Origin: Escherichia phage vB_EcoM_112
Sequence record: NC_024125.2
Direction: 5' to 3' (one strand)
DNA length: 64,000 nucleotides
The notes beneath the pieces were generated by a model. It was not told the origin of the DNA and made no database searches. It saw only the letters and a program-made list of their open reading frames with translations. Shown piece after piece: positions 37,210-37,683 of the stretch (its first letter is position 1; each line of letters starts with the position of its first letter). Made by a program: the position numbers and the translations under genes.

Positions 37210-37683
37210 TTATTTGATTTGTTTAGCAGACCAAATGCGATCTTTAATAATTTTTTGGATGTCTTCAACATACTCAAGAGAGTGAGCATGTGGGTTATCT
37301 TTGAAACTATAAGCACGAGCTAACTTTTGACCTTCAGTTTTGATTACTAAAAGCTCTTTAAGGATAGCTTCATATTTGGAGATAATTCCTTTAACAATAT
37401 TTTTTTCTTGTGTAGCTTTAGGATCTGCTTTAGGAGCAGGTTTACCTGAAGCCTTTGCAAAAGCAGCGCCAGTAGCAACTAAACTTTTCCAGGCCATACT
37501 AACAGCATTCCCCGTAAATCCTTCTGCTTTCATGTCGCGAGCAAATTGGAATCGCGATTCGTCAGAAGCATCTTTATAAGAATATTTACCCGCTGCAATG
37601 GCTGCTTTTGCGACAGCTTGAATTTCGGTGCTAGATGCTTCATTTAACACCGCTTCATTTAAAAATTGAGTATATGATTTCAT
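37210..37683 (-). CDS. internal protein with capsid-targeting N-terminus
   Basis: Internal ATG gives MKSYTQFLNEAVLNEA..., 158 aa; the longer track ORF runs into the RNA gene region. Confidence 0.55.
   Translation of the reverse strand: MKSYTQFLNEAVLNEASSTEIQAVAKAAIAAGKYSYKDASDESRFQFARDMKAEGFTGNAVSMAWKSLVATGAAFAKASGKPAPKADPKATQEKNIVKGIISKYEAILKELLVIKTEGQKLARAYSFKDNPHAHSLEYVEDIQKIIKDRIWSAKQIK

Follow-up and report, generated by a model that had tools for sequence, protein, structure and literature searches.

A candidate internal head protein gene between rnaC and e.8 in T4-like phages

Does the small gene that follows the stable-RNA genes of a T4-like phage encode an internal head protein (Ip) that has gone unrecognized? 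The question is raised by an open reading frame (ORF) on the (-) strand at 37210..37683 of the window, i.e. the whole 64-kb stretch of Escherichia phage vB_EcoM_112 DNA analysed here. The background against which such a candidate is read comes largely from T4, where the first ten residues of IPIII are enough for packaging, residues 4 and 7 serving in targeting and residues 8 and 10 in processing, with gp21 cleaving after L/I-x-E (PMC9026906, a review of the work of L. W. Black). A catalogue of the ip genes of T-even relatives is also available (PMC12373910, its reference 27). Ips have only the leader in common, and a nonhomologous mature domain is normal in the class. It is argued below that the product of the 37-kb gene, hereafter the target, is probably an unrecognized Ip of T4-like phages.

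The window is a segment of a Tequatrovirus genome, RB32/PP01-like in character. A 1.3-kb query around the target gene matched 784 phage records, the best at ~96% (PP01, SG1, RB32 and RB33), and the PP01 and RB32 records span the cassette region, described below, completely. Gene order is T4-like, running from vs.8 through an Ip gene, lysozyme e, nudE, e.2-e.8, rnaC and rnaD, and tRNA-Arg to segB, and beyond segB through seven more tRNAs, trna.2-4 and two Ip genes to 57B and 57A. The tRNA/stable-RNA transcription unit ends with rnaC, the species 1 stable RNA, placed at ~37810..37948 (-) by alignment with T4 and RB33, so that its coordinates are approximate; rnaD plus rnaC show a mean column identity of 92% to the annotated T4 and RB33 copies. 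Inside rnaC, ARAGORN reports a 94-nt 'tRNA-Lys (ttt)' at 37809..37902 (-), which falls below the Rfam tRNA gathering threshold and is probably the tRNA-like part of rnaC, not a ninth tRNA. The CAT-anticodon tRNA at 38863..38934 (-) is called tRNA-Met by the same program, the T4 counterpart position (L002 7961..8034) being annotated as tRNA-Ile. At the other end of this region, the vs.8 homologue (31608..32258, (-)) aligns with all 219 residues of T4 vs.8 at 95% identity; codon 34 of that reading is, however, an in-frame stop (~32157..32159), the ORF reopening at a Met four codons on (179 aa), and this stop could be a nonsense mutation or the sign of an over-long T4 annotation.

The target CDS runs from an ATG at 37683 to a TAA at 37212..37210 and specifies 157 aa plus a stop; an earlier note on this DNA had reported the same ORF and the same N-terminus, MKSYTQFLNEAVLNEA, and had counted 158 aa. 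The gene is a homologue of RB33_134 and a member of PHROG 2280, and the slur03 record gives RB32ORF133c for its match. A Shine-Dalgarno element, AGGAAA, can be read from the sequence at 37688..37693 (-), the GGA of which precedes the ATG by 6 nt. The longer ORF in the program-made list (37210..37905, TTG start, 231 aa) crosses a hairpin into rnaC, and was correctly suspected of being artificially extended. The target is a real gene under strong purifying selection, its dN/dS being 0.045 against RB33 and 0.067 against PhAPEC2.

The case for an Ip begins with the N-terminus, MKSYTQFLNE|AVLNE|A, in which all four IPIII determinants are kept, namely Tyr4, Phe7, Leu8, and Glu10 followed by Ala11. 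Codons 1-10, MKSYTQFLNE (37654..37683, (-)), form a putative capsid targeting sequence (CTS), with the first predicted gp21 cut after Glu10 (LNE|A). A tandem duplication, TTAAATGAAGCG-GTG-TTAAATGAAGCA (37636..37662, (-)), creates two consecutive LNE|A sites (residues 8-11 and 13-16), after Glu10 and Glu15, from which the sequence continues as AVLNEASSTEIQAVAK from Ala11 or ASSTEIQAVAK from Ala16. The Mosigvirus homologue lacks the 5-residue duplication and has one cleavage site only. In the AlphaFold2 (AF2) model, residues 4-15 of the target have a pLDDT <50, as expected of a flexible propeptide.

When the 615 Met-starts of the window (six frames, >=40 codons downstream) were scanned with the pattern MK[STM][YF]x[EQ]F, exactly four carried it, at 41020, 40684, 37683 and 32761. 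By chance, the window would be expected to hold 5e-6 occurrences of the fuller pattern MK[ST][YF]x[EQ]F[LI]xE[AGS], and 0.03 of the four functional positions alone. A position-specific matrix built from eight named Ip N-termini ranked the target fourth in the window at 10.7 bits, behind the three canonical Ips (30-39 bits) and ahead of a next candidate at -1.9. The target CTS departs from the named Ips in having Ser3 and, within the Tequatrovirus branch, Gln6 at a position where Glu6 is otherwise invariant. The four functional CTS positions are kept in homologues down to ~40-50% identity, whose N-termini include MKTYNEFL, MLEYSEFLKE, MKFKEFLAE and MLKFNEFLAE, and whose cleavage sites take the forms LTE|Q, LAE|A, LAE|G and LKE|L.

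These data also bear on the idea that the product is not packaged at all and is instead a late cytoplasmic accessory protein, its CTS-like N-terminus being a non-working legacy of ancestry or of recombination with an ip gene. A CTS score far under those of the canonical Ips, together with Gln at position 6 in the Tequatrovirus branch, would suit such a protein, as would the literature searches for virion proteomics, N-terminal sequencing and genetics of the family, which returned none and hence no evidence of virion association. However, the four functional positions are preserved from genus to genus although the remaining sequence has diverged, an argument for selection on the signal; moreover, the cleavage motif is duplicated, and the predicted late-only expression behind a terminator fits a head component. 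Absence from the virion is thus quite improbable, and an Ip is the preferred reading.

The three remaining CTS genes are already known. The ORF at 32288..32761 (-), for which 157 aa and a targeting N-terminus had been claimed on sight, does begin with such a sequence, MKTYQEFITEAAINSQ, and has that length; both it and the target carry a targeting N-terminus, as the earlier note had it, and in both the CTS-type start comes with an L/I-x-E|A gp21 cleavage motif. The gene encodes Ip4 (IpIV), a known internal head protein, as judged by the RB33 note 'Ip4', the PST gene ipIV ('internal head protein'), a match to PHROG 3155 at E 2e-101 ('internal virion protein') and the Pfam family DUF7412; as in RB33, no other gene lies between vs.8 and lysozyme e. 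Within 32147..33350 of the window, T4 denV, ipII and ipIII are absent and Ip4 stands in their stead; PST retains ipIII beside ipIV. Two further genes occupy the classical ipI locus. Ip6 (40451..40684, (-); MKMYQEFIAE|A, 77 aa) belongs to PHROG 8111 ('internal virion protein') and agrees with PST ipVI in size and position, and Ip5 (40763..41020, (-); MKTFKEFATK..., 85 aa) is identical to RB33 Ip5 and falls in PHROG 3499, labelled 'internal head protein'; PST has the same two genes. The CTS genes of the window thus number four (Ip4, the target, Ip6 and Ip5), in line with the four injected proteins that had been proposed, although their injection stays a prediction; only the 37-kb gene among them is new.

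Past the propeptide, the target goes its own way. In BLASTP, its similarity to IPI, IPII, IPIII, Ip4, Ip5, Ip6, Ip7 and Ip9 is restricted to the N-terminus, the best named match being Ip9 over residues 1-36 (39%, E 2.4e-4 in the 8-sequence database), and residues 16-157 compared with the eight Ips gave nothing significant by BLASTP (best E 0.12, 8-sequence database). Homology of the mature domain to the IPII, IPIII, IPI or Ip4-9 families was thus not found; strong full-length identity to IPII/IPIII, which would have made the gene unremarkable, was looked for as the earlier note advised, and the similarity ends after the propeptide region. Profile searches of Pfam, NCBIfam and PDB gave no match to the target, a Pfam Shikimate_dh_N hit (E 0.12) and an NCBIfam hit (E 0.095) being noise. 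Foldseek against BFVD retrieved the target's own family plus an uncharacterized protein of Serratia phage PS2 only. Three large proteins (P0017-19) that matched in five stretches each in a full-library HMMER search were discarded as spurious; they consist of Ig-like repeats with a beta-rich fold, and the match is due to AAGSYSYKAFVA, which resembles AAGKYSYKDA.

In the full-length AF2 model (pLDDT 75), the disordered propeptide leads into a three-helix N-domain, which a linker of low confidence connects to a long helical hairpin. The N-domain (residues 16-80; 37444..37638, (-)) is conserved and contains the motif AGKYSYKDxSDESRFQFxRDMKAEGF, almost invariant across genera; it is similar to the three-helix domains of RecX repeats and winged-helix proteins. 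The linker (residues 72-90; 37414..37470, (-)), KASGKPAPKADPKATQEK, is basic and rich in Lys, Pro and Ala, with low pLDDT in the block 81-90, and the alpha-helical hairpin covers residues 88-154 (37222..37422, (-)). One protein, P0016, links the forms found in E. coli phages and in Klebsiella/Yersinia phages along their full length. The predicted mature part, of 142-147 residues, ~15.5-16 kDa and pI 9.5-9.6, is all-helical and in the range of IPII*, IPIII* and Ip4*.

A comparison with T4 IPII/IPIII (MKTYQEFIAE|A) summarizes what is shared and what is not. Alike are the ten-residue propeptide with an aromatic residue at position 4, Phe7, an aliphatic residue at position 8, and Glu10 followed by Ala, as well as a small, basic, non-essential product with a patchy occurrence among T-even phages. 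The target differs in showing no similarity past the propeptide, in its locus, which follows rnaC instead of lying between denV and e, and in its duplicated cleavage site, Ser3 and Gln6. In Ip9, the best pairwise match, the first cleavage site is likewise followed by another x-N-E; however, the mature domains of Ip9 and of the RB-series proteins Ip4-Ip7 are unrelated to that of the target, and their genes, which carry internal-protein annotations, occupy the ipI or ipII/III loci. Against the features by which Ips are recognized, then, the target has the aromatic-4 and Phe7 pair, an L/I-x-E tripeptide (residues 8-10) with a small residue behind it, and a small, basic, non-essential product that is variably present in close relatives.

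The modelled structure is also relevant to a second alternative, that the protein is a prohead core accessory of the gp67/gp68 kind, targeted to the scaffold, degraded by gp21, expelled and never injected. In keeping with this, the CTS-like N-terminus is accompanied by one further internal L-x-E (LKE, residues 108-110); yet that tripeptide is part of the long helix, which is predicted with confidence, and the residue after it is Leu rather than a small one; besides, the gene is dispensable and variably present, unlike those of core scaffold components. Such a fate for the protein is very improbable indeed, and an Ip that persists in the head is again favoured.

The surroundings of the gene make up a cassette of 557 bp (37175..37731, (-)), consisting of a predicted late promoter, the ORF and a second hairpin, which is missing in T4 and PST. 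The earlier note had placed the gene between two terminator hairpins, and both were located, at 37759..37736 and 37202..37179. The upstream one (37736..37759, (-)) has the form of an intrinsic terminator, AGCCCCGACC-GAAA-GGTTGGGGCT followed by U5, with a 10-bp stem, -20.7 kcal/mol and a z of -3.5; situated ~50 nt past rnaC, it would end the rnaC unit, and an identical hairpin occurs in T4, PST and RB33. The downstream one (37179..37202, (-)), AGCCCCGACC-AAAA-GGTTGGGGCT followed by U5, also has a 10-bp stem (-19.7 kcal/mol, z -3.7) and starts eight nt past the target stop. These are copies 1 and 2, respectively, of a ~30-bp direct repeat of the terminator that bounds the cassette. T4 and PST have a single hairpin that is followed directly by ggtatcta[ag]gcctttcc..., the sequence found here after the downstream hairpin. 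The rnaC-e.8 interval of T4 contains no gene, and thus no internal-protein gene, as the earlier note had it.

Directly after the upstream hairpin, and 38 nt upstream of the ATG, is the T4 late-promoter consensus TATAAATA (37722..37729, (-)). Taken by itself, the motif has no statistical significance in this AT-rich DNA (5 and 7 copies per strand vs ~8 expected); it also stands right after the hairpin in RB33, fPS-65 and the Klebsiella Jiaodavirus KpV477, and in PhAPEC2 as the variant AATAAATA. The annotation of fPS-65, made independently, brackets the target homologue with two terminators and includes a late promoter. The Mosigvirus PhAPEC2 has the same hairpin-gene-hairpin layout with its own pair of near-identical hairpins, and the KpV477 homologue is likewise placed past the tRNA cluster, behind the hairpin and TATAAATA. 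As the position is common to three genera, the target gene appears to be old at the rnaC-e.8 site. We think that T4, T2 and PST would have lost it when their hairpin copies recombined with each other; a gain by the carriers, rather than a loss in those three phages, may also apply. The segB homing endonuclease gene (38156..38821, (-); 85% identity to T4 SegB) lies ~0.5 kb upstream of the cassette, and SegB co-conversion could aid the spread or removal of its neighbour; a second GIY-YIG relative occurs near 11.2 kb (~11182..11460, (-); 53% identity over 93 aa).

Cassettes bounded by stem-loops have precedents among T4-type phages in the form of the promoter/stem-loop (PeSL) elements (Arbiol 2010, PMC2839356; Comeau 2014, PMC4122927). 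The target cassette resembles these in having a small accessory gene between repeated stem-loops, with indel boundaries exactly at the repeats. In contrast, its repeats are plain terminators devoid of an early promoter, and a predicted late promoter lies inside the cassette; classification as a PeSL was rejected, there being no sigma-70-type promoter at the hairpins and the nearest one lying ~140 nt downstream, before e.8. The target cassette is therefore not a strict PeSL, yet its indel logic is alike. Elsewhere in the window, at 40393..40450, 40685..40762 and 41021..41092 (-), GTTTACA, a spacer and a stem-loop whose loop contains GATACTAT precede each of Ip6, Ip5 and trna.4; this composite motif is a PeSL-type early promoter plus stem-loop, whereas the target cassette has a predicted late promoter only.

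Is the rnaC-e.8 interval, then, a proper place for an ip gene? The classical ipI locus extends from 57B to trna.4 and the ipII/III locus from vs.8/denV to e, and the target, between rnaC and e.8, is at neither. Location at a classical locus is nevertheless a matter of custom, not of function, and in other phages the rnaC-e.8 interval holds a second CTS gene. In PhAPEC2 (gp133; L004 3089..3652), fPS-65 (g135c; L003 2102..2665) and RB69 (ORF149c plus 148c; L007 7429..7991, frameshifted), the next gene toward e.8 encodes 187 aa starting MKTYAEFLTE|AA, and in PhAPEC2 and fPS-65 it is annotated between terminators. Its match to PHROG 2280 extends from end to end of the protein (E 1.6e-53); 165 records contain it, and it was 'hypothetical' in 25/25 sampled rows; an RB69ORF149c-type gene is absent from the window, as determined by the scan of 615 Met-starts. 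The RB69ORF149c/PhAPEC2 gp133 family thus has in common with the target the slot, the terminators, a CTS-type N-terminus, membership of PHROG 2280 and the lack of an annotation; in BLASTP and hhalign comparisons of the two families, however, only the first 10-11 residues are alike. Because hhalign aligned residues 1-10 only, the shared PHROG is the sole evidence of a deeper homology between them. The slot may be empty (T4, T2 and PST), hold the target only (the window and RB33), hold both genes (fPS-65 and PhAPEC2) or hold the neighbour only (RB69), and with at least these four states it looks like a third internal-protein locus.

Across databases, the target gene is widespread. By tblastn, it was found in 510 phage records, 468 of which covered >=80% of the query, among T4-like phages of Escherichia, Shigella, Klebsiella, Yersinia, Salmonella, Citrobacter and Serratia; RB33, wV7 and RB68 are among the carriers. 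Two further searches, one against 5.8 billion clustered proteins and the other against 1.84 billion cluster representatives, gave only 13 and 11 matches, respectively; the named sources of these are all T4-like phages, and the remainder are metagenome or Logan contigs. The product was 'hypothetical protein' in all 120 rows inspected (120/120, of ~510-520 records), including RB33 and Shf125875, where annotators had labelled other Ips, and PHROG 2280 itself is labelled 'unknown function'. Literature searches with RB32ORF133c, RB69ORF149c and phrog_2280 returned no mention, although an older naming (Repoila et al. 1994, outside the search) is possible. T4, T2 and PST lack the gene, and fPS-65, KpV477 and SfPhi01 carry it in a frameshifted or truncated form; by sequence comparison, it is dispensable and polymorphic. 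One Logan contig (ERR11570814, L010, 2898 bp) encodes at 2394..2678 a 94-aa ORF (P0013) that begins as the N-part of Trna.3 and ends with the 31 C-terminal residues of the target. The fusion implies loss of trna.2, the tRNA cluster, segB, rnaD, rnaC and most of the target gene. An ip gene is likewise missing between 57B and trna.4 of this contig, which could represent either a deletion that arose in nature or a chimera made in assembly. In sum, the target is real, widespread and unannotated, and would be unsurprising to T4 specialists once noticed.

What the protein might do can be outlined from its motifs, its conservation and the precedent of known Ips. The rnaC terminator would halt early and middle transcription, leaving the late promoter TATAAATA to drive the target alongside the head genes. 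As a CTS, MKSYTQFLNE would carry the precursor into the scaffolding core of the prohead, where the gp21 prohead protease would cleave after Glu10 and/or Glu15, and the basic, helical mature protein (142-147 residues) would be retained in the head with the DNA. Upon infection, it would be injected together with the DNA and could act in the next host ahead of phage gene expression. Judging from the motifs and their conservation, packaging, cleavage and injection of the product are likely.

Its activity in the host is another matter. Ip1, Ip2 and Ip3 of T4 each inhibit one GmrSD type IV restriction enzyme, a different one in each case and without cross-protection; ip4-10 were without reproducible activity on the tested GmrSD classes (PMC12373910). 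By analogy with Ip1, Ip2 and Ip3, the likeliest role for the target would be that of an inhibitor of a nuclease-type host defence; because Ip4-10 were inactive on the tested GmrSD variants, that analogy may not extend to the target, and an anti-defence role is a plausible suggestion that falls somewhat short of probable. The ip1-10 set of PMC12373910 shows no sign of the target family, its supplement naming ip4-10 only and holding no matching sequence strings. A broader proposal would make rnaC-e.8 a third Ip locus whose one or two terminator-bounded PHROG 2280 cassettes encode injected effectors of new specificity, directed either against a GmrSD variant for which no inhibitor is known or against a DNA- or recombination-directed defence outside GmrSD, the latter option being suggested by the RecX/winged-helix-like N-domain and the basic linker; taken as a whole, it is tentative and rather doubtful.

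The main rival to an inhibitor is a basic, DNA-associated, non-inhibitory protein, packaged via the CTS as envisaged here and engaged in charge neutralization, DNA organization or protection of the entering DNA, with no specific host target. Although unlikely, this physical role is to be taken more seriously than either a non-packaged late protein or a degraded core accessory, both of which are less likely still.

Internal proteins work in the first seconds of infection, ahead of phage gene expression, and Ip4-10 remain orphans, to which the target adds an unannotated family with the same targeting signal. That family comprises ~510 records, many of them from therapy-oriented phage collections, and its sister family in the same slot a further 165. 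A plain scan for the N-terminal motif can thus reveal Ip candidates beyond the two classical loci, and both of the slot families could bear on host-range differences among near-identical T4-like phages.
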